A stretch of 45,046 bases of DNA. It comes from a virus (lineage: Duplodnaviria > Caudoviricetes). Positions 112 to 42,347 of the stretch are shown in pieces (the first letter of the stretch is position 1; the number at the start of each line of letters is the position of its first letter). The position numbers and the translations under genes are program-made. The notes below the pieces were generated by a model. It did not search any database, was not told the origin of the DNA, and saw nothing but the letters and a program-made list of their open reading frames with translations. Location of the stretch: positions 1 to 45,046 of IMG/VR virus record IMGVR_UViG_3300032001_000013. The stretch is one strand, 5' to 3'.

Positions 112-550
112 GCCTGCCGAGCCGGGCATTGCCCACCCGTGCCGATCCGTGCCCTTGCCTGCGCTGCCGCGCGATGCCCCGCCGAGCTGCGCCTTGACGT
201 GCTGAGCGATTCCTGCCCCGACTTGCCGAGCCGTGCGGTGCGATCCGTGCCGACCGAACGGCGCCCAGCCGAGCCTTGGGCTGCCTCTGCCTGCCTCACA
301 ATGGCATGCCTCGCCCCGCCTTGGAACGCCTCGCCATGCTTTTCCGGCCGAGCCGGGCCGGGCTGCGCTAGGCCCTCGAAGCCACGCCTAGCCTTTCCTG
401 CCTCGCCCAGTGCCGCATCGCCGTCCACGCCGTGCAGCGGGGTGCCACGACGGCCGCACCTTGCCTTGCCCTGCATTCCGCGCAGAGCCGAGCTGTCCGG
501 ACGGTGCCGGGCCAAGCCACGCGATCCGATCCCGTGCCGGGCCCTGACGT
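112..550 (-). repeat. GGY-NN pentamer array 1 (about 7 units; putative non-contiguous guide RNA)
   Basis: 5-nt periodic GCC-NN on + strand (GGC-NN on -), units separated by GGCAGG/GGCCGTC-type spacers; promoter-like TATCTT-CC-TTGATA at 563-550 on -; hairpin at about 79-110 downstream. Confidence 0.9.
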
Positions 551-1689: not shown

Positions 1690-2241
1690 TCAGCGGCGAG
1701 CTGCTTCCTGGACGCCGCCTGCTTCCTCCAGCAGCTTGATGATGGCGCTGAGCTGGTCGCGAGAAGGCTTCAGGTAGATGATGCCCTGGGCGAGCCGCAC
1801 TGGATCTTCGCCGGCGGCCCCGATCATGGTGTTGCAGTCCCGGTCGGCGTACCCGCGGATCCTCTTGGTTACGTGGTCGTGCTCGACGCACAGGGCCAGT
1901 CCGTTGGGGCCGTTGCCGCTGGGAATTTCGCCGCAGATGTCGCAGCGTCCCGAGCGCCCGGCGACTTCAGCTCGGTACTCCTCGATGGTGATGCCGTAGA
2001 GGCGCTGAAGCTGATAGCTGCGCAGGCGGTCCTTGTTGGCCTCGCGCCAGGCTTTATGCGCCTTGCTGACCTCCTCCTTGTGACCTTGCCGGTGCAGGCC
2101 TGCGTCCTCGCGTGCCTTGACCGCGCAGGTCCAGCCTTTGCTCCTGGCGGCATTCCTGTTGACCTGAACCGTTTCGCCGCAGCCCGAGCAGTAGGCCGTC
2201 CGGTTCGTTTCGTCGATCCGGCTGATGTAGTGCTGGCCCAT
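1690..2241 (-). CDS. Endonuclease VII-like (His-Me finger) nuclease, likely free-standing homing endonuclease
   Basis: YGIT..EY, CDICG, VEHDH..RIRG..CN motifs; N-terminal CxxC. Confidence 0.85.
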   Translation of the reverse strand: MGQHYISRIDETNRTAYCSGCGETVQVNRNAARSKGWTCAVKAREDAGLHRQGHKEEVSKAHKAWREANKDRLRSYQLQRLYGITIEEYRAEVAGRSGRCDICGEIPSGNGPNGLALCVEHDHVTKRIRGYADRDCNTMIGAAGEDPVRLAQGIIYLKPSRDQLSAIIKLLEEAGGVQEAARR

Positions 2242-3020: not shown

Positions 3021-4040
3021 ATGACCGAGCTTGCCACCGTTGCGAACGGGCAGCTGGCGCCGGCGGCACCGCTGGGCGGCCTGCGTCCCCGCGTTGCCTC
3101 GCGCAAGAGCGACGACTACGTTGCCCAGATCGAGGCCCGCCGGGCGCGCTCGGCTCCGCTGACCCGCGAGGCCAAGGTGCGCAAGATGGCCTTGATCCTC
3201 TCCGACGAGCTGCACGGCTTCCGCCGCCTGGGCGTCGGCATGGTGGGCCCGATCCAGCTGAAGCTGAGGTACCAGGGCATCGTCCGCAACGTGCTCGTCG
3301 AGGACCCGGTGACGCCGGGCACCCCGGTCGAGTACGACGTGTGGGACGACCTGGGCCAGGCCTACATCCTGAGCGGCACCGAGGGCGAGGTCCGGGTCAC
3401 GCCCTTTGAAGGCAAGCGCATCCCGGTGCGGTTCTTCCGCATCGCCAGCCGCCCGGCGATCCGCAAGGAGGACCTGTTCTACCTCCGGATCAACGCGGTC
3501 GAGCAGGCCCAGGACGAGACCAAGCAGGCCATCCTGAAGCAGGAGGACGCCCGCCTGCTGGTTATCCTCCAGGCCGCGGTGACGGACTACGCCACCCGCC
3601 CGGACCACGTGGTCACGCCGAACCACAACATCACCGAGGCCTCGGGCTATCTCACCCCGGGCAGCCTCTACTCGGCTGTCGCGATGACGGACCTGCACGA
3701 GCTGCCGTCCGCCCGGCTCATGATCAACCCGTTCGACTTCCGCGACATGTACCGCTGGGACATCAACCAGACGGGCTGGGCCTTCAAGGACCGCGTGGTC
3801 GCCGGCGAGACGATCACCAGCTTCGGCGAGTTCCAGATCCAGCGTTCCATCATCGTGCCGCAGGCCAAGATCTTCCTGACCCCCGAGCCCAACTTCCTCG
3901 GCGTCTTCCCGGTCCTCTACTCGCTCGACGTCGAGGAGAACCACATGGTCGAGGCCTTCTGGAAGGGCTGGGTGTTCGACGAGATGGTGGCTATGTCCAT
4001 TTTGAATCCAAGGGGAATAGCCACGATCACCAAGAGCTGA
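3021..4040 (+). CDS. Major capsid protein
   Basis: GPIQLKLRYQGIVRNVL, YRWDINQTGWAFKD, YSLDVEEN...KGWVFDE closely resemble Bxz1/cluster C MCP; strong RBS. Confidence 0.93.
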   Translation: MTELATVANGQLAPAAPLGGLRPRVASRKSDDYVAQIEARRARSAPLTREAKVRKMALILSDELHGFRRLGVGMVGPIQLKLRYQGIVRNVLVEDPVTPGTPVEYDVWDDLGQAYILSGTEGEVRVTPFEGKRIPVRFFRIASRPAIRKEDLFYLRINAVEQAQDETKQAILKQEDARLLVILQAAVTDYATRPDHVVTPNHNITEASGYLTPGSLYSAVAMTDLHELPSARLMINPFDFRDMYRWDINQTGWAFKDRVVAGETITSFGEFQIQRSIIVPQAKIFLTPEPNFLGVFPVLYSLDVEENHMVEAFWKGWVFDEMVAMSILNPRGIATITKS

Positions 4041-9799: not shown

Positions 9800-9852
9800 C
9801 GCCATGTCCGGACAGATTCCCCGTGATCTCCCCGTGACTTGACATGCAGTGC

Positions 9853-9867
9853 TAGGTTTATTGATAT
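9853..9867 (+). promoter_or_regulatory. Phage promoter motif TANNNT-N2-3-TTGAYA (representative copy)
   Basis: Copies at 4483, 5028, 5919, 6674, 7889, 8422, 9853, 11252, 15090, 16881, 24481, 32752, 34492 (+) and 563, 26910, 30033, 37478 (-). Confidence 0.8.
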
Positions 9868-9890
9868 TGACCGACCAAGCGGGAGAACGG

Positions 9891-11249
9891 ATGAGAACCG
9901 AGACGGAGATCGTTGCCGCCATGAGAGCGGCGGCGCAGCCAGGACGGCTGCGCCTGAGCAGGCAGGTCACCGCGCAGCTGCGGGGCCTGACCGATGAGCT
10001 GGCGGCAGCCCGGCCGGCCTCGGCGCAGGAGTACGCGCGGTTCCTGGCCATCGGCCGCCGCGGCATGGTCCTGCCCGAGGCGGAGCTGGCCGGCCGGATC
10101 CGGCATGCCACCATCCTGGTGACCGGCGGGACCGGCTGCATCGGCACTGAGCTGATCCGCCAGCTGGCTGAGCGGCGGTCGGGCCTGGGCTGCCTGGTCA
10201 GCGTCAGCCGCGGCATCACCAGCGGCTACCCGCGTCACCCTGAAGTCAAGTACCGGCATGCCGACATCTGCGATCGCGCTGCCATGAATGAGCTGATGGC
10301 CGAGATCAGGCCCGATCTGGTCTTCCACGTGGCGGGCCAGCGCGACCCGGGCCTGGCCGAGACCGAGGTGCACCGCACCGTGACCACCAACGTGCTCGGC
10401 ACCCGCGCCGTGCTGGTCGCGGCGGTACGGGCCGGCGTCCCCCAGGTGGTGTGCTGCTCGACCGGCAAGGCACTGCGGCCGTACTCCCCTGACGTGTACA
10501 CGGCATCCAAGCGCGCGGCCGAGTGGGTCGCCTCGGGCGTGGCCGCTGCCACCCCCATGCTGGTCTCGGCCAGCCGGTTCACGCACGTGATGGACAACTC
10601 GATCATCTGCCGGAAGCTGTGGCGCTGGGCGGAGGCCGGCCGTGCCATGCGGCTGCACGACCCCGGTATCGCGTTCTACGTCCAGTCGGCCCGGGAGTCC
10701 GCCCAGCTGCTGCTGCTGGCGGTCCTGGAGGCCCGCCGGGGCGAGTTCCGGGTCAACGCCCTGACCGATCTCGGCTGGCCGGTGAGCCTGCTGGACGTCG
10801 CGCTGGGGACGCGGGCGGCGGCAGGCCCGGAGTCGCCGGTCTACTTCAGCGGCTACGACCGCGGGTACGAGGAGACCCCGTTCCCGGGCCTGTACGACCC
10901 GCTGACCGCGGGCGGGGTGAGCCCGCTGCTGAACATGTTCGAGGCCGCCGCGAAGACGGGCTGGGCCGAGGGCCAGGCCGACACGTTCCGGCTGGGCTTC
11001 GCGCCCGACCGGCAGGCCCTCAAGCGGCTGGCCGTGCTCGCCGAGGTCTGCGGCAGCACCACGAACCCGGGGCTTGCCCGGGGCTGCCTCGATGAGCTGT
11101 CCTGGGCGCTGCTGTCCGCGGCCACGCGGGCGGTCCCGCCCGCGCTGCTGGCCCGCTCGGCCAAGATGGCCCGGCAGCAGGAGCCGCTGAGCGACGTGCA
11201 CCGCCGCGTCCTGGAGGTTATCGAGTCAGCGACCGGTGTATTCGGGTAA
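9891..11249 (+). CDS. CapD-like NAD-dependent nucleotide-sugar epimerase/dehydratase (polysaccharide biosynthesis)
   Basis: ILVTGGTGCIG Rossmann motif, VFHVA, NVLGT, STGKA, YTASK. Confidence 0.85.
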   Translation: MRTETEIVAAMRAAAQPGRLRLSRQVTAQLRGLTDELAAARPASAQEYARFLAIGRRGMVLPEAELAGRIRHATILVTGGTGCIGTELIRQLAERRSGLGCLVSVSRGITSGYPRHPEVKYRHADICDRAAMNELMAEIRPDLVFHVAGQRDPGLAETEVHRTVTTNVLGTRAVLVAAVRAGVPQVVCCSTGKALRPYSPDVYTASKRAAEWVASGVAAATPMLVSASRFTHVMDNSIICRKLWRWAEAGRAMRLHDPGIAFYVQSARESAQLLLLAVLEARRGEFRVNALTDLGWPVSLLDVALGTRAAAGPESPVYFSGYDRGYEETPFPGLYDPLTAGGVSPLLNMFEAAAKTGWAEGQADTFRLGFAPDRQALKRLAVLAEVCGSTTNPGLARGCLDELSWALLSAATRAVPPALLARSAKMARQQEPLSDVHRRVLEVIESATGVFG

Positions 11250-11290
11250 GCTAGGTTCATTGATATTCATTCACCCGAGGGGGACTACTC

Positions 11291-12634
11291 ATGACTGCCG
11301 CGCCGGGGCGACCCTGGGCTGAGGGCGAGCCTGCCCACCAGTTCCAGGTACCCGCGTACCAGCCGCCCGCCCATCTCCTGGGCCCGTTCCGCGTTCCCGA
11401 CGACACCAGCACCCAGGTCATGCCCGCCTGGCGGCCCGAGGAGACCGTCACGGCGCCGCTGCCGCTGGGCCAGCCCGAGCCGGTCCCGGCGCCGCGGCGC
11501 AACCGGATCATCGCCCTGGTGCCCGTGCACAACGGGGAAGCGGACCTGGCCCCGGCCATCGAGGCGCTGCTGGCCCAGACCCGCCCGCTGGACGAGATCA
11601 TCATCATCTCCGACAACTCGACAGACGGCACCGTGGCGGTCGCGAGCCGCTACCCGGTGACGGTGATCGAGTCGGCAGGCAACAGGTACCGCAAGTCCGG
11701 CGCGCTGAACCAGGCCTGGCGCAAGTACGCCCAGGACGCCGACTACGTGGTGTGCATCGACGATGACACCCGGCTGCCGCCGTTTGCGGTGGAGCACTTC
11801 GAGGCCGAGATGACCGAGGATCCCGGGGTAGGTGGCATCTCCTGCCAGGTGGTGATGCGGGGCAGCAGCATCCTGAGCCGGATCCAGCGGGCCGAGTTCG
11901 CGCAGAGCACGGTGCTGAGCCGGAACCGGGGCTGGGTCCGGGTCATCTCGGGCACCGGCTGCATCTTCCGCAACGAGGCGCTGCGCGAGGCCGCCCTGCT
12001 CCCGGGCCAGGAGGGCCCGTGGACCTACCGCAGCGTGGTCGAGGACTACCACCTGACCTTCCAGCTGCGCAAGCTGGGCTGGCTGTGCATCATGAGCAAG
12101 GACGTGTGGTGCGACACCGGCAGCATGCCCTCGGTGAAGGCGCTGTGGCACCAGCGGGTCAAGTGGCAGTCCGGCACGATCGGCGACCTGATCAACTTCG
12201 GCTTCAACCGGATGAACTGGCGCGAGTGGATGCAGCAGTTCTACGGCCTGATCTGCGTGGCCTTCTGGATCCTGTGGATCTCGCTGAACGGGACCGCCTG
12301 GGCCCTGGGCGGGCTGCACCCGAACATCTGGTGGGTCATCTTCCCGGCGATCTTCGCGGGGACCGAGTGCTTCTACGCCTGGCACATCCACGGCCGCGAC
12401 TGGAAGGACATGCTGCTGGCCGTCTCCATGGTCAAGATGATGATCTACACCTTCCTGTGCATGGGCTGGAACCTGGCCAGCTGGTGGATCATCCTGCGCG
12501 GCAAGCAGAAGGACCTGTGGGCTGCCCAGTACGTCGCCGACGGGACAGACAAGGTACTAGGGGAGGGAATGAGCGATGCCGGACCTGCCAGCGAAGAGGA
12601 CCGTCGTCCCGCGCCGCAGGCGCTATGCCGTTAG
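11291..12634 (+). CDS. Processive GT2 glycosyltransferase (cellulose/PNAG synthase-like)
   Basis: PVHN, DNSTD, KSGALN, DDD, VED, QRVKW (QxxRW-like) and C-terminal TM helices. Confidence 0.9.
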   Translation: MTAAPGRPWAEGEPAHQFQVPAYQPPAHLLGPFRVPDDTSTQVMPAWRPEETVTAPLPLGQPEPVPAPRRNRIIALVPVHNGEADLAPAIEALLAQTRPLDEIIIISDNSTDGTVAVASRYPVTVIESAGNRYRKSGALNQAWRKYAQDADYVVCIDDDTRLPPFAVEHFEAEMTEDPGVGGISCQVVMRGSSILSRIQRAEFAQSTVLSRNRGWVRVISGTGCIFRNEALREAALLPGQEGPWTYRSVVEDYHLTFQLRKLGWLCIMSKDVWCDTGSMPSVKALWHQRVKWQSGTIGDLINFGFNRMNWREWMQQFYGLICVAFWILWISLNGTAWALGGLHPNIWWVIFPAIFAGTECFYAWHIHGRDWKDMLLAVSMVKMMIYTFLCMGWNLASWWIILRGKQKDLWAAQYVADGTDKVLGEGMSDAGPASEEDRRPAPQALCR

Positions 12635-13697
12635 CGCGGCCCTGGGGACCGTGGCAGCGGCCGTGCTGGGCCTGGCGCTCTGGTCGATGGCCGGCGTGAC
12701 CGCGGCCTACCGCGGGGTGACCCCGGCCGCCGCGGCAGCGGCAGCGCCCGCGCCCCGGCCGCTGGTGATCTACCACGCGCCGTTCGTCAGGTACGAGAGG
12801 GCCAGGGCCGTGCCGGTGCTGGTCTACCACGAGATGAACAACGGCTGCGCGCCCTCGGCGCCGGTCTGCAAGGCGGCCGACCCGGAGACGGTGAGCACCG
12901 CCCAGTTCCGGGCCGAGATGGCCTACATGTTCAGCCGCGGCTACCACACCGTCACCATGGCGCAGTACCAGGCCTGGCTGGGCAACCGCAAGACGAGGCT
13001 GCCGTCCAGGCCGTTCCTGATCACGGCGGACAACGGCATCTGGAGCTTCCTGTCCGGGGCCCAGCCGGTCCTGGCGGGCTACGGCTACACCGCCGTGGCC
13101 GCGGTCGTGACCGGGTTCGCCGACGGGGCTGGCGGGCACTGCGCGCCGCGGATCGGCGGGGTCAGCGTCCAGCCGGGCTGCCCGCGGGACAACGCCGGCT
13201 GGGATGCCACCTGGGCCCAGCTCCGGTCGCTCGACCCGAGGGTGTGGGAGTTCATCCTGGAGGCCGGGCCGTCCGGCCACTACGTCCAGGATTACGACCC
13301 GCACTGCCGGATGTTCGACGCCTGCCTGCTGCCCGGCGAGACCGTGGCGCAGTACCAGGTCCGCCTGGCGGCCGAGCTGGGCGGCGGCGAGACGGCGCTG
13401 GCTGCCCGCCTGGGCAGCCGCGTGAACCCCGGCGGCTGGGTGGTCCCCTACAGCGACCTGGGCTACCCGCGCTGCGCGCAGGGCGACTGCACGCCGCAGG
13501 ACGCCACGATCCCGCAGGGCTACCTGGTGAATTACGCCGATGCTCACTTCCGGGCCGTCTTCGTCGAGGATGCTTCCCGCAATGCCATCGGCCACGAGCG
13601 GTTCCGGTTCGACGTCAACGGCCCGGACACCGAGGCCTCATTCCAGAGCCAGCTGGCGGCTTTCACCGCCGCGGGCGCATTCGACAGGAGCAGGTAA
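12576..13697 (+). CDS. Polysaccharide deacetylase-like secreted/anchored protein
   Basis: VPVLVYHE, GYHTVT, FLITADNG (TFDDG-like); N-terminal TM. Confidence 0.75.
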   Translation: MPDLPAKRTVVPRRRRYAVSAALGTVAAAVLGLALWSMAGVTAAYRGVTPAAAAAAAPAPRPLVIYHAPFVRYERARAVPVLVYHEMNNGCAPSAPVCKAADPETVSTAQFRAEMAYMFSRGYHTVTMAQYQAWLGNRKTRLPSRPFLITADNGIWSFLSGAQPVLAGYGYTAVAAVVTGFADGAGGHCAPRIGGVSVQPGCPRDNAGWDATWAQLRSLDPRVWEFILEAGPSGHYVQDYDPHCRMFDACLLPGETVAQYQVRLAAELGGGETALAARLGSRVNPGGWVVPYSDLGYPRCAQGDCTPQDATIPQGYLVNYADAHFRAVFVEDASRNAIGHERFRFDVNGPDTEASFQSQLAAFTAAGAFDRSR

Positions 13698-18607: not shown

Positions 18608-19132
18608 ATGACGATCGACCAGCAGATGATGTACGCCCAGCCGCTGACCACGGTCATCGTGCAGAACATGACCGCCTCGGTGCTGGTGATCGCCAGCGAC
18701 CCGCGGCGCACCCACGAGGTGACCTTCGAGGGCAAGGGGTCGCCCTCGGGCGGCGACTTCCAGCACATGCCGCCGGAGATCGTCCGCACCCCCGCCTTCG
18801 CCCGGCAGCTGTCCCTGGGCACGCTGAAGGTCGTCCAGGGAGAGGATGACCCGGCCGTCAAGGCGGCACTCCAGCATCAGTCCGACGCGTTCTGGAAGCG
18901 CGCCGAGGAGGACCGGGCCGCCGCGCTGTCCACCCTGGACGAGGTGGCCGACAACGATTACGTGGTGTTGCAATGCGTAGGACCGGGCACCAGGCCGGAT
19001 GCCCCGTGCGGGGAGAACATCCCGCGCAAGAACGCCGAGGCGATGGCGAGGCCGCCGCTGTGCGACCGGCATATAGGCCTCACCGACAAGTGCGTCCGCC
19101 GCGGCGACGGGCCCTGGGTCCTGGAGCAGTGA
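18608..19132 (+). CDS. Conserved phage protein with C-terminal Cys/His cluster
   Basis: RBS AGGAGG; C..PG....C....PPLC..H. Confidence 0.85.
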   Translation: MTIDQQMMYAQPLTTVIVQNMTASVLVIASDPRRTHEVTFEGKGSPSGGDFQHMPPEIVRTPAFARQLSLGTLKVVQGEDDPAVKAALQHQSDAFWKRAEEDRAAALSTLDEVADNDYVVLQCVGPGTRPDAPCGENIPRKNAEAMARPPLCDRHIGLTDKCVRRGDGPWVLEQ

Positions 19133-19147
19133 TTACTATGGTTCCTA

Positions 19148-19273
19148 GCCAAGGTGAGGCTAGGCATCGCGTGTCCTGGCACGGATGGGCATGGCGGGGC
19201 CCGGCAGGAGTGGCTCGGCTTGGGGTGGCTCGTCTAGGAGTTGCCCGGCGTGGCTGGGCAGGTACGGCAAGGA
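19148..19273 (+). repeat. GGY-NN pentamer array 2 (2 units)
   Basis: Strict 5-nt register with GGCAGG separators; units match the flanking genes when decoded. Confidence 0.9.
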
Positions 19274-19297
19274 AGTCACGCCAGAGCGGAGTCTGCC

Positions 19298-19720
19298 ATG
19301 CCCTTCAGGCCTGACCCGGCCGCGATGTCCGGCGTCTACGAGACCACCGAGACCTCGGGCCCGACCGCCAACTTCACCGACATCCGGCACACAGCGCCGA
19401 TCTTCGGCATCGCGGTCGCCACCGACCTGGCCTGGGCGCTGCGCGCGATGGACGCCAGCGACGAGGACGTGCCGCCCAACCTGGTGCAGACCAGCCCCGG
19501 CCTGACCGTCAACCGCGGCGACCCGGAAGACGACCGCCGCCGGATCATCGCCGCCGCCGAGCGCAACCGGCACCACCTGGACCGCCTGGGCTACACCTAC
19601 GACGAGCACGGCATCCCCGTCCCGCCCCCGGCCAACCCGGCGCAGTCCTGGATGCACCAGGCCTCCTCGCTCGGCCCCATGACGAACGTCCCGCACGAGC
19701 CCGCCGGCCCGGCCGGGTAG
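19298..19720 (+). CDS. Hypothetical phage protein
   Basis: ATG with GGAG RBS; GC3-biased codons. Confidence 0.8.
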   Translation: MPFRPDPAAMSGVYETTETSGPTANFTDIRHTAPIFGIAVATDLAWALRAMDASDEDVPPNLVQTSPGLTVNRGDPEDDRRRIIAAAERNRHHLDRLGYTYDEHGIPVPPPANPAQSWMHQASSLGPMTNVPHEPAGPAG

Positions 19721-20339: not shown

Positions 20340-22889
20340 ATGCCCGATGCGCAGGCCGGCCCGGCCCCGGCAGCGGCCACCGTCGACACCGAAGGCATCA
20401 ATCCTCCGCTCGGCACGGCCCCCGGATCCCCCGGCACGATCATCCAGACCGGGCGGGCCAGCGTCCAGGACACCACCGGCACCGCGGTGGCGGGCATCGG
20501 CGCGGCCATGCCCGGCGGCTCCGTCCTGGACGTCATCCCCTGGGCCGGAGCGGGCCAGGCGGGCAGCGGGACCGGGCAGCCGCCGCAGTCCGATTACGCG
20601 GTCAGGCCGGTCACCGAGGGCCAGTACGGCTTCCCCCAGGGCGCACCGGACACCGCCGAGGTCCTCGGCGGCCCGAGGGGGACCGCCGTGGTCACCCCGG
20701 CCAGCCCGTACCCCTGGCTGCCGAGCAGCACCGCGTTCACCGGAGTGCTGGACACCCAGGTCGGCGGCGGCTCGGCGCTGATCTCCGGGCTCGGCACCCC
20801 GCCCGCCTACCGGGCCCCGTCCGCGGGCGTGGCCGCCTCGGTCAAGGACACCTCGCTGACCGACATCATGGGCAACCAGGTCACCGCCATGCCGCTGACG
20901 TCGAGCGCCTACTCCGCGTTCAACGTGGACACCTCCTACGTCGGGGCGCCCTCGGCGCCGGTCTCGCTGAGCACCCAGGTCGACACGTTCACCGGCACGG
21001 CAGCCAGCCCGACCCGGTACTACGCCAGCCAGCAGGGCGCGGTGCCCTCCTCGCTGGTGGTCCGCGACACCACCAGCAGCCAGACGCTGGTCTCGGGCAC
21101 TGACTACACCGTGACCTCGGCCGGCAACGGGCCGAAGACCAGCCTGTACATCACGTTCACGCACGTGGTCAACTGGACCGCCGGCGATGCGGTGACGCTG
21201 ACCTACTCCTACGGCACGCCCGCGTACTTCGACTCGAACCTGCCCGCGCCGGCGTCGCAGTCCAACGTCGACACCTTCGCCCTGTCCGAGCTGCCGGTGC
21301 AGCTGTCGTCCTGGTCCATCACCACCGCGGCGAACGCCCTGACCGTCTTCGACGTCACCCAGAACGCGGCCCTGGTCTACAACACCGACTACACGGTCAG
21401 CACGGTGCAGGGCCCGTACACCCCGGGCGGCACGTACAACGAGCCGGTGCCCGCCACGTTCGCGGTCACCTGGAAGCCGACCTCGGCGACGGCGAAGCTC
21501 GGCGACACGGTGACGGTCACTTACAACTTCACCACCTCGGTCCCGGCCGCGCCCGGCATCGGCGCCACCACGGTCTACACCGACAACATCGCCACGATCA
21601 CCGCGACGCCGCAGGCGCTGGCCCACGCGGGCGTGGTCACGCCGCCGGGCTCCGTCCGGGTGGTTGACAACCAGGCCGGGGCCAACTTCGGCAAGGTCCT
21701 GGTGCTCAACGTCGACTACGCGCTGACCGTCACCGGCACCGGGGCGACGTTCAACTACTCGATCGCCCGCCTGGCGGGCAGCACGAACAGCGCGCTGAAC
21801 GACAACGTGCGGGTGACCTACGCGGCGGGCAGCTCGGCGTTCTTCGCCACCGGGCCCGTCTACTCCGTCGACAAGGGCGTGTTCGTGCCCTGGGCGCCGC
21901 CCTCGGGCTCGGTCCAGGTGGACTACTACCTGATCCAGTCCAGCGACCTGGGCACCATGTACGTGCCGGTGTCCGGCCAGCCGGAGTTCTACGGCCAGAT
22001 GTCCCCCTCGGGCGGCCCCAGCTCGGGCCAGCCGGTCTACCAGACCGACACCGGGACCATCTCCACCGGCACCCCGTTCAACCTGGCCAGGACCGGCGTG
22101 ATCACGCCGCCGGAGCAGCTGATCGTGCGGGACACCACCCGGGTCGGGCAGGACCCGATGCAGCCGACCGGCACCGTGCTGGAGCTGAACTACGACTACA
22201 CGGTGACCACTACCGGGCAGGGGCCCTGGAAGACCTACTCGATCACCCGGCTGGCCTCCTCGGTCAACAGCGTCAACGGCGATGCCATCACGGTCTCGTA
22301 CTGGTATGACCAGATGGGCGCCTTCCCGCTGACCCAGGTCGCCGACGCGATCACCCTCGTGGCGGGCGCGGCGCAGCTGCACAACCAGGACATCGCCACC
22401 CCGGCGTCCGGGCTGATCGTCTACGACACCACGGTCTCCAAGGCGCTGGCCTACGGCCTGGACTACACCGTCAGCCAGGTGGGCACCGGCCCGGCCCAGG
22501 CGATGACGATCACCCGCGTGGCGGGCGGCCCGGCCAACGTCGGCGCCACCGACGCGCTGACCGTCTACTACGGCTACGGCGTCGTGCTGTCCGCGGTGTT
22601 CCGGCAGGGCCTGGTGCCCAACCAGGTGCCGATCTACACCCCCTCGGGCAGCCAGCGGGCCACCCCGACCGGCGGCTACCAGATCTCGATCGCCGCGGGC
22701 AACCGGGCGGGCCTGGGCCCGTTCTCGGCCTGGTCCGATTACGTGGTGCCGCTGAACTACTCTGCGCCGCAGCCCGGGGCCCAGGGCACTACCACGGCCG
22801 GGACAGGAACTTTGGATGCGCGAAATTCAATTAATCCTATTTACCGGCCGGATGGGTCGGTAAAGGCCGGCACCGGCCAGGGCATGTAA
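20340..22889 (+). CDS. Large virion structural protein with repeated beta-rich domains
   Basis: Five L...DY(T/A)(V/L) repeats; FN3-like elements (W..P, AGN..G.GPFSAWS); T/S/G-rich. Confidence 0.8.
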   Translation: MPDAQAGPAPAAATVDTEGINPPLGTAPGSPGTIIQTGRASVQDTTGTAVAGIGAAMPGGSVLDVIPWAGAGQAGSGTGQPPQSDYAVRPVTEGQYGFPQGAPDTAEVLGGPRGTAVVTPASPYPWLPSSTAFTGVLDTQVGGGSALISGLGTPPAYRAPSAGVAASVKDTSLTDIMGNQVTAMPLTSSAYSAFNVDTSYVGAPSAPVSLSTQVDTFTGTAASPTRYYASQQGAVPSSLVVRDTTSSQTLVSGTDYTVTSAGNGPKTSLYITFTHVVNWTAGDAVTLTYSYGTPAYFDSNLPAPASQSNVDTFALSELPVQLSSWSITTAANALTVFDVTQNAALVYNTDYTVSTVQGPYTPGGTYNEPVPATFAVTWKPTSATAKLGDTVTVTYNFTTSVPAAPGIGATTVYTDNIATITATPQALAHAGVVTPPGSVRVVDNQAGANFGKVLVLNVDYALTVTGTGATFNYSIARLAGSTNSALNDNVRVTYAAGSSAFFATGPVYSVDKGVFVPWAPPSGSVQVDYYLIQSSDLGTMYVPVSGQPEFYGQMSPSGGPSSGQPVYQTDTGTISTGTPFNLARTGVITPPEQLIVRDTTRVGQDPMQPTGTVLELNYDYTVTTTGQGPWKTYSITRLASSVNSVNGDAITVSYWYDQMGAFPLTQVADAITLVAGAAQLHNQDIATPASGLIVYDTTVSKALAYGLDYTVSQVGTGPAQAMTITRVAGGPANVGATDALTVYYGYGVVLSAVFRQGLVPNQVPIYTPSGSQRATPTGGYQISIAAGNRAGLGPFSAWSDYVVPLNYSAPQPGAQGTTTAGTGTLDARNSINPIYRPDGSVKAGTGQGM

Positions 22890-32766: not shown

Positions 32767-33770
32767 GGCCTGGCCGGGCCAGGCGAAGCCTTGACAGCGC
32801 GTCAAGGCATCGCGTGGCAGGAAAGGCTAGGCGTGGTGCCGATCGCCCGGCGTCGCTCTGCTAGGCAGTCGAGGCGCAGCCCGGCGCGGATGGCCGGGCC
32901 GGGTAGCGCCAGGCAGAGCAGGGCAGGGCAGGATGGGCCCCGCTCGGATGGCTGGGCATGGCAGCGCAGGAAAGGAATGTCTTGGCCTGGCCAGGCGAGG
33001 CCCGGCGGGGCAGTCATGGCTCGTCTAGGCATTGCGGGCCAGGGCGAGGCGAGGCAGGCGATTGCTCGGCGGGCCGTGGCGCCGCAGGGCAGGTCTAGGC
33101 AGGCTAATGGTTCAGTGAACCATTAAGGCAGCCAAGGCATGCCGGGGCGAGGCTCCGCGGGGCATCGCCGGGTATCGCAAGGCCGTCATCGCGGGGCACC
33201 GCCCGTCCTGGATGGGCATGGCGCCGCGCGGCGCTGCCAGGCAGGATTGGCGAGGCTTGGCCCAGGCATTGCCGGTCGTGGCACCGCCCGGCAAGGCAGG
33301 AGAGTCTGGGCTAGGCGGGGCATCGCTCAGCGCGGCGAGGCACAGTGCCGCGAGGCCGGGCGGGGCTAGGCAGTCCAGGCATCGCTCGTCGCGGCCAGGC
33401 ATGGCCCGGCGAGGCGCAGCGAGGCAGTCCCGGTATCGCTCGGATGGCTTGGCCAGGCAAGGCCAGGCAGGGCCGTCGAGGCGTGGCCTTGCGCCGCCTG
33501 GACCGCAACGCATCGCAAGGCTGGGCAAGGCAGGTGCAGCCTGGCAAGGCAGTGCCTGGCGGCGCAACGCGCAGCCTGGCCAGGCGAGGCAGTCAGGTCG
33601 TGGCGAGCCTTGGCCCGGCAGTGCCCGGCCCGGCAGCGCCCGGCACGGCATGGCAGGAGATGCTAGTCAGGGCCAGGCTCGGCTCGGATCGCGCGGCTCG
33701 GCGCGGCAGGAGCAGCTTGGCATGGCGGGGAGAGGCTGAGCCCGGCTAGCGGGGCAAGGCGCGGCAGGTA
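32767..33770 (+). repeat. GGY-NN pentamer array 3 (about 18 units)
   Basis: Starts right after promoter TAAGGT-TCA-TTGATA (32752); internal palindrome at 33105-33125. Confidence 0.92.
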
Positions 33771-34505: not shown

Positions 34506-35324
34506 AGCATGGTGGTCCTGGGCTGGGCGTCGGTGGCACATCACGTCCAGGCCGGGCGTGGCCGTCCAGGCGCGGATAGCCAGGACGGCGCGTCCAGGCG
34601 CTGCCGCGCTCGGCAGTCCTGGTGTCGCGAGGCGGGGCAGTGCGTCGCTGGTCGCGGCAAGGCAAGGCCCGGCTCGGCCGTCGCGGTTAGTCTGCGCGTG
34701 TCGGTGCTGGGCCCGGAGCGCTAGGCTTCGCTGGGCCGTCGGCGCATCGCTATGCGTGGCCCGGCTTGGCGTGGCAAGGCCTCGCATCGCAAGGCAAGGC
34801 CGTCGAGGCTTAGCTGGTCTGGGCACGGGATGCCAGGCACGGCGGGGCGCGGCCGTCCAGGCTGGTCTAGGACATCCCGTCGAGGACTGGCGTGGCCGTC
34901 AAGGCCTGGCGGGTCCGGGCCCGGTACCGCATGGCACAACTCGGCGCGGCCGGAGATGCTGGGCTAGGCGAGGCATCGCGGGGCGCGGCGAGGCTAGGCC
35001 GTCTGCGCGGGGCTCGGCAAGGGTCGCTCCGCTCGGCAGGGCACGGCGAGGCCGGGTTGGCAAGGGTCGCCCGGGTGGCGTTGCATCGCTTGGCCGTCCT
35101 GGTATAGCCCGGCGTCGCATTGCGAAGCGGCGCGGGGCATGGCCTGGCTGTCGAGGCTGAGCTTGGCGCTGCGTCGCTTGGCGCTGCGAGGCTGGGCGCG
35201 GCCGTCCTGGCCCGGCCCGGAGGCGCAACGCGGGTCCAGGCGAGGCAGGGCTAGGCCGTCTAGGCACGTCCCGGCGGGTCGGGGCTGAGCTAGTCGCCGC
35301 CTGGCAAGGTGTGGTGAGGCAGGA
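34506..35324 (+). repeat. GGY-NN pentamer array 4 (about 15 units)
   Basis: Follows promoter TAAGGT-TCT-TTGATA (34492); GGCCGTC separators. Confidence 0.92.
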
Positions 35325-35377
35325 GGTTCTCCGGCCCGGGAAGACGTGAGGATGTCTTCCCGGGAGGAGAGCCCACG

Positions 35378-36931
35378 GTGACGGTTCCGACTTTTTCGTC
35401 TTATCAGCCTCCTGGCGTCTACGTCTCCGACGTCACCGGGCCCATCGTCACCACGACCGGGGTCTTCCCGCAGATCCTGACGCTGGTCGGGCCGGGGCTC
35501 GGCTACCGCACCGCGGTCCAGACCTTCCAGATCTTCGCGGGCACGGGCGCCATCCTGAACTTCACCGGGGTCTTCACCACCGCCCAGGCCGGGCCCCCGG
35601 CGATCGCCGCGCCCGTGATGACGGTCACCGGCTCCAGCACCATCCTGGCCCAGGGCACCGACTACAGCTTCACCGTGACCCCGGACCCCTCGGGCAACGC
35701 CGCGCTGGCGGTCACCTCGGTCTTCCGGGTCGGCACCTCGACCAGCATCGCCGACGGCGCCCAGGTGACGATCACCTACAACTACGCCGACGTCACGTAC
35801 TACCAGCCGCAGCTGTTCACCAACTTCCCCGCGGTCACCAACGCCTACGGCCAGCCCCTGGTGGCCGCCGCGCCGACCCAGGCCAACGTCAGCCAGGTGG
35901 CCAACCCGCTGAGCTACGCCGCGCAGACCGCATTCGGCGCCGGGGCCAACCAGGTCATCGCGTGCGCCTGCAACCCGGCGGACGGCACCCTGGAGCAGCA
36001 GCTGCTCGCCGCGTACACCAAGCTGGCTGCCGTCTACGACTCGACCCTGGTGGTCCCGGTCTTCCCCGACTACCTGGGCGGCTTCGCGGGCGGCTCCGGC
36101 GTGTCCCAGTACGCCCTGACGCTGGCCACCGACCTGGACGGCGCGATGCAGGGCGCCAGCGTCAACGGCTACCCTCGGATCGGCTTCTTCGGGCTGCCGG
36201 TGGACTACTCCGAGTCGGCGCTGCCGGTGCCGAGCTTCTCCGCCTCGATCGCCGACAAGCGGCTGGTGCTGGCCTACCCCAAGGCCCTCCAGGCCTACAA
36301 CCCGCTGACCCGGCAGACGTTCAGCGCCTCGGGCTGCTACCTGGCGGTCGCGCTGGCCGCGGTGCTGTCGGCGCTGCCGGTGAACACCGGGCTGACCGGC
36401 CAGGCGGTGCCCGGCTTCGCGGGGCTGACCGCGGCCGAGCTTCAGGCGATGACCCCGGCGTTCATGAACAGCCTGGCCCAGGCCGGGACCACGGTGGTCT
36501 ACCAGAGCCGCAACGGCGGGCTGACCTGCCGGCATGGCCTGACCACCAACATGAGCGCGCTGAACACCCGGGAGATCTCACTGGTCCGCCAGGCCGATGC
36601 CCTGCTGGTGTCCCTCCAGGCCGGGATGGAGAACTCCGGGCTGATCGGCACGCCGATCACCGCGAACACGGTGGCCACGGTGCAGGGCGCGATCGTCTCG
36701 ATCCTCCAGCAGGACATCGCCCAGGGCATCATCGCCAGCTACACGAACCTGGTGGTCGCCCAGCAGCAGTACCCGGGCGGCGACCCGACGGTGATCACCG
36801 CGACCTTCTCCTATGTCCCGAGCGTCCCGCTGAACTACATCGAGGTCACGTTCAGCATCGACCTCAGTGCTGGCCTGGTGTCCCAGCAGTCACAGCAGAA
36901 CGCGGCAGCTCCCACCGTCTCCGTGACCTGA
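35378..36931 (+). CDS. Contractile tail sheath protein
   Basis: Y..PGVYV N-terminus; RHGLTT, REISLVR..D, P..PLNYI.V.F C-terminus. Confidence 0.92.
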   Translation: MTVPTFSSYQPPGVYVSDVTGPIVTTTGVFPQILTLVGPGLGYRTAVQTFQIFAGTGAILNFTGVFTTAQAGPPAIAAPVMTVTGSSTILAQGTDYSFTVTPDPSGNAALAVTSVFRVGTSTSIADGAQVTITYNYADVTYYQPQLFTNFPAVTNAYGQPLVAAAPTQANVSQVANPLSYAAQTAFGAGANQVIACACNPADGTLEQQLLAAYTKLAAVYDSTLVVPVFPDYLGGFAGGSGVSQYALTLATDLDGAMQGASVNGYPRIGFFGLPVDYSESALPVPSFSASIADKRLVLAYPKALQAYNPLTRQTFSASGCYLAVALAAVLSALPVNTGLTGQAVPGFAGLTAAELQAMTPAFMNSLAQAGTTVVYQSRNGGLTCRHGLTTNMSALNTREISLVRQADALLVSLQAGMENSGLIGTPITANTVATVQGAIVSILQQDIAQGIIASYTNLVVAQQQYPGGDPTVITATFSYVPSVPLNYIEVTFSIDLSAGLVSQQSQQNAAAPTVSVT

Positions 36932-36933
36932 TT

Positions 36934-37458
36934 GCCTGCCCTACCCTGCACAGCTAAGCGCTCCAAGCCAAGACGAGCGCAGACGGCCATGCCCTGCCAA
37001 GCGTTCCGTGCCCGGCCTCGCCTTGACGGCCATGCCCAGCTCCGCGAGCCCGCGCCTAGCCAGGCCTCTCCGGCCGAGCGCTCCACGCCAAGCCCTGCCA
37101 AGCACGGCCTAGTCGTGCCATGCCGCTCCGGCCTCGCCACGCTCAGCGACGCCAGTCCTCGCCGAGCCAAGCGACTCCTGCCGAGCCGAGCGCGGACATC
37201 CCGGGCCGCGCCAATCCCGGCCAGGCCGCGACTGCCCGGCCCTGCCTAGCCAGGACTAGCCGCCCTGGCCCCGCGGTGCGTTTCCGGCCCCGCCAAGCCC
37301 CGCCGTGCCTAGCCACGCGACGCCCAGCAATGCGCTGACGGCCGTGCCGGGCACAGCGGCCCATGCCGGTCCAAGCGCAGCAACACCTGGACGGCCTCGC
37401 CTCAGCGTGCCCTGGCAAGCCATCTAAGCCAGGCCCGGATGTGCGGCGCCAAGACTGC
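36934..37458 (-). repeat. GGY-NN pentamer array 5 (about 10 units)
   Basis: GCC-NN register on +; promoter TAGAAT-CA-TTGACA at 37478-37465 on -. Confidence 0.92.
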
Positions 37459-41261: not shown

Positions 41262-41665
41262 GCCTGCCTTGCCCTGCCACGCCTATCTATGCTGCTCCGA
41301 GCCCTTGCCTGCCTTGCCCCGCCTTGCCGTGCCAGGCTTCGCCGTCCGAGCCGCTCCTGCCTAGCCTCGCCATACTGCGCCTGTCCTCGCTATGCTGCGA
41401 CTCGCCGCGCCTCGCCAGGACTGCCCTGCCGCACCGTGCCTCGCCCAGCTGTGATCGCCCTGCCCAGCAGCGCCTTGACTGCCTTGCCCGGCATTGCCCA
41501 GCGGCCCTTGCCGGGACAGGCCCGGACATGCCAGGACTGCCTCGCCTCGCCCCGCCCTGCCCAGCCAAGACTGGCCATGCCGTCCCTTGACGGCCGCGCC
41601 CTGCTGAGCCTTGCGGAGCCGGGCCCCGCCTACCCGGGCCCTGCCGTGCCTTCGTCTCCTGCCTG
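41262..41665 (-). repeat. GGY-NN pentamer array 6 (about 7 units)
   Basis: GCC-NN register on + with GACTGCC separators; downstream of - gene 41808..42347. Confidence 0.88.
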
Positions 41666-41807: not shown

Positions 41808-42347
41808 TTACGCCCCGTGGCTGAACTGCACTCCCGGGACCTCGTTCTGCCCGTCGGGGCCGTGCACGATGACTTCGAGGTCCTGATCGGTCACCACCGG
41901 GTCGCCGAACTTGTCGACTTCCTCCCGGCCGACATCGTGGCTGCCGCAGCTGTGGCAGGTGGACCGCCAGTGCCGGCCGCGCAGTGCCCGGCCGTGCGTG
42001 ACCGGGTGCAGGTCGTTCTGGAGCCGCCAGATCGTGTCGATGTTGAACGTCTCCAGCTGCTCGGCGGCCTCCAGGGCCAGCTCGGGCCGCTGGTAGGCGG
42101 CGTAGAGCCGCCGGTACCGGTACAGGGTGCCGATGCTCAGGTCCATCGCGTCGGCCAGCTGGATCAGGGTGTAGGCATCGGTGAAGCTGTCGACGCACTG
42201 CCCGAACCGCCAGGCGGCGCGTACCGAGTCCTGGCCCGCCTTGACGAGTCCCGCGTAGGACAGCTCCAGCGTGTTGAGGGTGCCCGCGTCTACGCGGCGT
42301 CCTGGCGTGGTGGTCCTCCGGCTGCCCGGTGTGTCGGCGTTATTCAT
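41808..42347 (-). CDS. HTH plus Zn-ribbon protein upstream of array 6
   Basis: LADAMDLSIGTLYRY HTH-like; CHSCGS; RBS GAAGGA; promoter-like TATTTT-CC-TTAGTA at about 42387. Confidence 0.75.
   Translation of the reverse strand: MNNADTPGSRRTTTPGRRVDAGTLNTLELSYAGLVKAGQDSVRAAWRFGQCVDSFTDAYTLIQLADAMDLSIGTLYRYRRLYAAYQRPELALEAAEQLETFNIDTIWRLQNDLHPVTHGRALRGRHWRSTCHSCGSHDVGREEVDKFGDPVVTDQDLEVIVHGPDGQNEVPGVQFSHGA

Follow-up and report, generated by a model that had tools for sequence, protein, structure and literature searches.

Array 2, a two-unit guide cassette in a soil phage, carries guides that resemble the genes on both of its sides. The array can be said to aim at both neighbours because its second unit (A2.2) matches the start of the downstream gene, in addition to the match of its first unit (A2.1) within the upstream gene. 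Both guides fit the orthologous genes of relatives better than the copies beside the array, the junction is empty in these relatives, and the own copy has changed inside the footprint. We lean towards the view that array 2 is a linked weapon-plus-immunity cassette, which would silence the orthologs of both flanking genes in sister phages while its own alleles escape. Neighbour targeting by array 2 is a new variant of VIPR use.

Phage and Guide Arrays

The window is the whole stretch of 45,046 nt that was analysed. It is a 45-kb fragment with 70% G+C from a large tailed phage (major head phrog_2522, sheath phrog_2839), with an estimated completeness of 28%; the relatives have sizes of 147–166 kb. 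The description of VIPR dates from 2026 and presents it as a weapon that acts on satellites and prophages; its vrRNA is an alternation of GGY and a guide dinucleotide (NN), read with a 1-nt skip (available text of 10.64898/2026.04.26.720920). Six arrays of GGC-type 5-nt repeats were found in the window, and judged by their repeat code they fit VIPR vrRNAs:

112..548, minus strand: array 1, same repeat type as array 2
19148–19259, plus strand: array 2 cassette, two GGY/NN units, VIPR-type vrRNA
32767..33765, plus strand: array 3, GGC-type 5-nt repeats
34506..35320, plus strand: array 4, GGC-type 5-nt repeats
36938..37455, minus strand: array 5, GGC-type 5-nt repeats
41266..41650, minus strand: array 6, GGC-type 5-nt repeats

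The arrays stand singly, scattered among conserved genes. Under the 1-nt skip, 10 of 151 guides had a match at E < 0.05, compared with 1, 0 and 3 under other skips. Among the 31 window guides with at least 8 NN, five matched at this level when 3.8 Mb of relatives were searched, and three of these matches were on flanking genes; the other 26 had no such match. No targets were found for arrays 1, 3, 5 and 6 in the window and the DNA of relatives.

A 4-nt unit, consisting of GGA or GGG and one further base, often interrupts the guides, as in arrays 1 and 3–6 of the window and in G017, L154, L197 and L205; no reading rule could be fixed for these units. In 73 kb of the relative G017 (L276–L279), we parsed about 147 sub-units, which form at least six arrays; this is far above published VIPR loci, and targets were found for almost none of them. 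In the close relative G034 (L293:4362-4666; 87% over the capsid region), an array stands at the site of array 1, and their first units are partly alike.

The Array 2 Cassette and Its Junction

The array 2 cassette occupies a 165-nt gap at a gene junction, with the following features:

18608..19132, plus strand: upstream gene, 174 aa, virion module, conserved; target family of unit A2.1
18953..18985, plus strand: own A2.1 footprint, 17/22; mismatches at NN 4, 6, 7 and 9; rare codons GAT, TTG, CAA, GTA and GGA
19134..19139, plus strand: −10-like hexamer TACTAT, predicted promoter, about 8 nt ahead of the first repeat
19148..19205, plus strand: vrRNA unit A2.1, 11 NN; directed against the upstream gene family in sense, skipping the wobble base
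19207..19259, plus strand: vrRNA unit A2.2, 10 NN; directed against the start of the downstream gene family in antisense, skipping the wobble base
19260..19297, plus strand: array end and short 3′ region, GGCAGGTAC motif common to array 3 and L021
19298..19720, plus strand: downstream gene, 140 aa; target family of unit A2.2
19324..19353, minus strand: own A2.2 footprint, 14/20; MSGVYETTET versus the common MTGTYDT[T/S]DT

The repeats of A2.1 and A2.2 are mostly GGC trimers, with degenerate ones among them, and both units have the length of a VIPR pentamer guide (about 9–16 units). Their 1-nt skip falls on the wobble base and serves either strand, as in VIPR. The two units abut with a 1-nt offset, like staggered arrays. 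The region after the array folds no better than its shuffles, so that a structured 3′ tail of the type II, SUSP1-like kind was not found there. Motifs of the form TAnnnT, similar to TACTAT, also stand ahead of other arrays, and a sigma-70 scan near array 2 gave no full promoter. Array 2 may be transcribed from the predicted −10-like motif at 19134.

No Pfam or PHROG family was found for the upstream gene or for the downstream gene. A protein search with the upstream product returned its own cluster and 52 homologs; no relative of this gene was found in GTDB genomes, and a single-protein query of IMG/VR was also negative. We collected 47 non-self DNA loci, which reduced to 32 distinct ones (L051 was omitted as a partial match). 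The array was absent from the junction in 32 of 32 distinct relatives. The stop codon directly touches the next start in L021 and L023, and four other relatives have small ORFs there. As with a free-standing homing element, relatives without the array carry the target in a conserved gene beside the empty site.

An L021-like allele was present at similar depth in the same sequencing runs, with the alignment ending at 19133 (X21 record 15, X5 record 21). The contigs of these runs, which may be the window's own source, indicate presence only, and the differences were matched to L021 by eye. This co-occurrence of a sensitive relative agrees with the proposal of the earlier note that a related phage is the target.

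Matches of the Two Guides in the Window and in Relatives

The NN series of A2.1 at 19151–19202 is AA GA TA AT GT CT AC TG AT GG CC, as first read. The codons at 18953–18985 are AAC GAT TAC GTG GTG TTG CAA TGC GTA GGA CCG, in frame, and the match of 17/22 was reproduced. This is the best site in the window at a 1-nt skip; skips of 0, 2 and 3 gave 14, 15 and 14. Of 2000 order-shuffled guides, 10 reached 17 anywhere and none did so at a distance of up to 700 nt from the array; the local E value was 9e-5.

We then scored A2.1 against the 32 relative loci. The score was 18–19/22 in six, 17 in eight and lower in 18; that is, 26 of 32 did not exceed 17, most of these being distant. The DNA match was 19/22 in L021, L023, G004 and G006. 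The only close relatives are L021/22 (83–85% aa) and L023-25 (75%), and both score 19. Among the 26 closest proteins, 17 score at least 18 regardless of codons. The best protein-derived scores were 20–21 for P0012 and 20 for P0013, and no homologous peptide scored can reach 22. The suggestion that the guide targets homologs of the adjacent gene is borne out by these scores: relatives reach 19/22 in DNA and 20–21/22 in protein against 17/22 for the own copy, the opposite of the outcome named beforehand as fatal, that no homolog beats the self copy. The perfect gapped match that had been expected in array-free relatives was not found, with 0 matches in IMG/VR (20-base gapped pattern) and 0 in GTDB genomes (22-base pattern).

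The four 3′ NNs of A2.1 (C-I-G-P) are fully matched in 29 of 32 relatives, and those of the own copy are not. None of the 52 homologous proteins shares V124 of the own copy (47 have Ile and 5 have Phe there); Val was seen in one distant DNA locus, G001. Cryo-EM has shown that the 3′ subunits of Vipr contact DNA first (available text of 10.64898/2026.04.26.720927). Because these subunits engage first, the V124 mismatch is plausibly the important one for escape from A2.1.

The aim of A2.2 at the downstream gene was absent from the earlier note. A2.2 scores 14/20 at its own site and 16–17/20 in 24 of 32 relatives; downstream DNA was lacking for three of these 32. We took the cut-off of 80% match from the available text of 10.64898/2026.04.26.720920. 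The own sites of A2.1 (77%) and A2.2 (70%) fall short of it and the better-matching relatives pass, while the own site of unit A4.21 of array 4 reaches 83%.

Codon Usage in the A2.1 Footprint

The atypical AT-rich codons noticed earlier in the footprint are real. Codings of the footprint peptide that are equally rare occurred in 3 of 200,000 simulations. Codons ending in A or T make up 4/11 of the footprint versus 7/134 in the rest of the compared stretch (p = 0.005), and 0–1/11 in ten homologs. In 37 genes, CAA is used for 2 of 403 Gln, TTG for 14 of 684 Leu and GTA for 14 of 678 Val, and one of the two CAA codons sits in the footprint. By rarity, the footprint ranks 47 among 8323 eleven-codon windows, and other patches are rarer.

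Compared with L021 and L023, changes private to the window occupy 6 of 33 footprint bases versus 23 of 420 bases elsewhere (p = 0.013); L021 and L023 have one private change each in the footprint. Five of the six are wobble bases, which are skipped under the published rule. Relative to the nearest peptide, P0002, the match is reduced by two changes alone, the Leu codon TTG and the first-base change from Ile to Val. The reading of the patch as escape from the guide is therefore only partly right. TTG is present as claimed; that it replaced a CTN codon is deduced from CTC in L023 and CT in the guide, and the codon of the ancestor itself was not observed.

Because most changes fall on skipped wobble bases, codon rarity is not explained by escape alone. 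The rest of the patch would need a raised local mutation rate, another agent that reads contiguously, or a role for the skipped bases. The additional changes at wobble bases are probably not a result of escape but a scar left by a locally higher mutation rate, with the guide binding weakly to its own site. No second guide in another register was found over 18953. The footprints of A2.2 and of the L174 guide have ordinary codons, and that of the solo guide of L021 has mostly ordinary codons.

Neighbour Matches of Other Guides

The last unit of array 4 also points to an adjacent gene:

35258..35320, plus strand: unit A4.21, last of array 4, 12 NN; directed against the tail sheath gene next to it, at its start
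35386..35421, minus strand: own A4.21 footprint, 20/24, in the sheath gene 35378–36931; mismatches all in the 3′ half of the guide

The local E value was 3e-6. No relative was found to beat the own match in DNA, and three proteins that share the peptide could score as much as 22/24. Codon rarity at this site was rejected as evidence, since rare codons at gene starts (2307, 22922, 35381, 37535) are common to relatives.

Similar cases were found in the family. The last unit of a small array in G017 matches the next gene at 19/24. The last unit of L174 scores 15/24 in its own neighbour and 19/24 in the G003 ortholog. The solo guide of L021, at the preceding junction, has its best own site at 17/24, which begins 20 nt off, and the window ortholog scores 16/24. 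We compared terminal and internal guides for near-matches at most 700 nt away (E < 0.02). In the family, such matches were found for four terminal guides out of 24 and three internal ones out of 169 (p = 0.005, or p = 0.024 if the index case is dropped); the same test in 22 unrelated VIPR loci gave 0 of 47 terminal and 3 of 127 internal guides.

Two further high-GC phages have a neighbour match: G031 at 22/30 and G032 at 19/24, with 20/24 in the relative G033 of the latter. In G032 (L327:2000-2560) and G033 (L328), the solo array unit faces an adjacent HNH-like gene (PF01844, E 0.02, below the cut-off), and the gene at which this guide is aimed is a possible homing nuclease. In unrelated VIPR loci, near-matches of internal guides to nearby genes were seen at L198:5190 (21/28) and L151:3783 (14/16). 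Unit 27 of L174 (15/16 in its own portal gene) was set aside, unexplained, as it is not wobble-aligned.

Source of Vipr

The vipr gene is absent from the window contig, which is 28% complete, and also from nine array-free relatives. The family members G017 and G028 carry vipr, a vap of 152–162 aa and long arrays. A profile of the G017 protein and 57 homologs matched SUSP1 Vipr (PDB 36pp) with E 2e-7. No Pfam match was found for the family vap, and a single-sequence model of Vipr was unusable (pLDDT 34). The longest contigs of the Vipr homologs P0093 and P0100 have the same lengths as those of the close target homologs P0084 and P0080, which is a hint only. The array 2 cassette encodes no nuclease, and most of the genome lies outside the window.

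Possible Explanations

In the explanation that we prefer, A2.1 and A2.2 would be loaded into Vipr supplied in trans, either from elsewhere in this genome or from a co-infecting relative. The complex would bind and silence the two orthologous genes of a rival co-infecting sister phage, and the own alleles would likely escape via mismatches near the 3′ ends of the guides. Adjacency could then be of use: recombination would rarely separate a guide from the immune allele beside it, and the pair would be over-inherited in mixed infections. Several results sit poorly with this. No perfect target was found, the own match of A4.21 exceeds the 80% cut-off, and the L021 guide fits the window ortholog worse than its own. 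Most own-copy changes are at skipped positions, G001 also has Val, and the window has no vipr. The many relatives at or below 17 for A2.1 and the 26 of 31 guides without a match weigh in the same direction. Moreover, a silenced virion-module gene of the rival might be rescued in trans, so that the fitness gain is not obvious.

Homing-like spread, also proposed in the earlier note, is an unlikely alternative, though the strongest of them. It says that Vipr–guide complexes flank the empty junction and cause a break or a stalled fork, and that repair then copies the cassette with its immune alleles, an RNA-guided form of intronless homing. The geometry is right: the targets of the guides lie on both sides of the insertion site and no more than 200 nt from it, none of the 32 relatives has an array at the junction, and the arrays are scattered singly between conserved genes. 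Free-standing endonucleases of T4 likewise cut neighbouring genes hundreds of bases off and exclude rival markers (available text of PMC2988022). However, where published VIPRs have DNA-binding vaps, they act by repression and not by cleavage (available text of 10.64898/2026.04.26.720920), and the family vap has no Pfam match. In addition to the lack of a nuclease at the cassette, trees of the N- and C-terminal halves of the gene, which were poorly resolved, gave no supported switch of neighbours and thus no signal of co-conversion. Array 2 was not seen in any other lineage among the 32 relatives.

A third explanation, which we think improbable, is that guides arise from adjoining DNA as self-targets and the allele beside them then mutates. 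The better match of relatives would be the ancestral state and of little use against rivals. The concentration of private changes in the footprint, mostly at wobble bases, would follow from this, and the enrichment at array ends fits polarised acquisition. On the other hand, each close allele disagrees with the guide at NN 4, NN 7 or both, so that the guide was not copied from a near ancestor of the present allele. The mostly ordinary codons in the footprints of A2.2, L174 and L021 are not expected either, and the available VIPR literature describes no acquisition mechanism.

It is quite improbable that the partial self-matches are functional targets by which the phage tunes its neighbouring late genes. 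Such autoregulation would suit A4.21 at the start of its own sheath gene (20/24), the last unit of G017 at its neighbour (19/24), and the position of several footprints at gene starts. However, the own alleles of A2.1, A2.2 and L174 match worse than those of relatives and depart from the family consensus inside the footprint, and the available text of 10.64898/2026.04.26.720920 reports surveys without self matches of at least 80%. An accidental resemblance, by chance or with an unrelated true target, would agree with the missing perfect match and the many guides without an assigned target, and is already largely refuted by the local E values of A2.1 and A4.21 and by wobble-aligned matches at the same orthologous site in many relatives.

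We also considered a more general idea, that actinophage VIPR cassettes are RNA-programmed selfish elements. They would be inserted between conserved genes, with guides at both flanking orthologs and immune flanking alleles, and would spread by nuclease-free homing or by marker exclusion via a trans Vipr filament, as a gene drive that leaves a mutation scar in its own footprint. We regard this idea as doubtful.

Comparison with Known Systems

The arrays share with VIPR the GGY/NN 5-nt repeats, guides of 9–16 units, the 1-nt wobble skip, targets on either strand, staggered arrays with 1-nt offsets, and vipr with a small vap in family members (available text of 10.64898/2026.04.26.720920 and 10.64898/2026.04.26.720927). 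The targets given there are satellites, prophage switches and other VIPR loci, whereas those of array 2 are core genes of sister phages that adjoin the array. Here, in addition, the own copy is a near-miss, the trimers are more degenerate (CGC, GTC, GGA), and the arrays are scattered far from vipr.

Solo or orphan vrRNAs of SUSP1-family phages and F5 satellites are also guides without an adjacent vipr (available text of 10.64898/2026.10.15.759431). The same text already reports, for vrRNA-targeting guides, a lower self-match than match to other phages. Their targets are vipr, vrRNAs, satellites and host REP elements, in contrast to orthologs of flanking genes here; the available text describes no case in which a guide targets a flanking-gene ortholog and the phage's own allele is altered.

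The T4-like free-standing homing endonucleases SegF, SegG and MobE resemble array 2 in being intergenic inserts with a target in a neighbouring conserved gene, in targeting relatives without the insert, in sparing the own allele, and in the marker exclusion predicted for array 2 (available text of PMC2988022). Unlike them, array 2 has its specificity in an RNA code and no nuclease at the site, and over-inheritance and co-conversion are only hypothetical for it. If silencing is true, array 2 would by analogy be a guide-RNA version of the neighbour targeting known from phage homing enzymes; if over-inheritance is true, it would be an RNA-guided analogue of intronless homing.

The available text of four VIPR-related preprints (10.64898/2026.04.26.720920, 10.64898/2026.04.26.720927, 10.64898/2026.10.15.759431 and 10.64898/2026.10.21.760802) does not mention homing. 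No 2026 paper was found that joins VIPR, homing, RNA-guided and phage; supplementary target tables of the preprints could include neighbour-targeting cases.

At this locus, the guides point at the nearest relatives and, within them, at the genes that flank the array, of which the phage itself has near-miss alleles. Such natural matched sets of guide, own allele and co-occurring rival allele make the mismatch tolerance of VIPR and its self/non-self discrimination measurable. The locus also makes testable how new vrRNA guides originate and whether guide arrays spread as selfish elements.

Other Features of the Window

Other patches of rare codons were observed. At 22803–22841, near the end of the 849-aa gene 20340–22889, 12 of 13 codons are rare, and 19 orthologous rows have mostly ordinary codons. 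This footprint-sized patch looks like a scar of attack by some guide or nuclease. The end of the capsid gene (3984–4028) is rich in rare codons, also in most relatives, with swaps between the Leu, Arg and Ser codon families; it is a family-wide synonymous hot spot. No guides were found for the patches at 22803 and 3984. In L021:10001-10140, the start of the homologous gene beside the solo guide is rich in rare codons, and no guide could be matched to it.

A very stable hairpin (z −6.5) lies at 35315–35380, between array 4 and the sheath gene. Upstream of array 6 on the same strand is a 179-aa ORF (41811–42347, minus strand), for which no known family and no homolog among the fetched relatives was found. 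An Endonuclease VII-like ORF (1690–2241, minus strand; PF02945, E 2e-13) is inserted upstream of the capsid cement gene and is likely a free-standing homing endonuclease in this genome. A sugar epimerase-like gene, a glycosyltransferase gene and a further uncharacterized gene stand in a row at 9849–13697, possibly as a surface-modification module.
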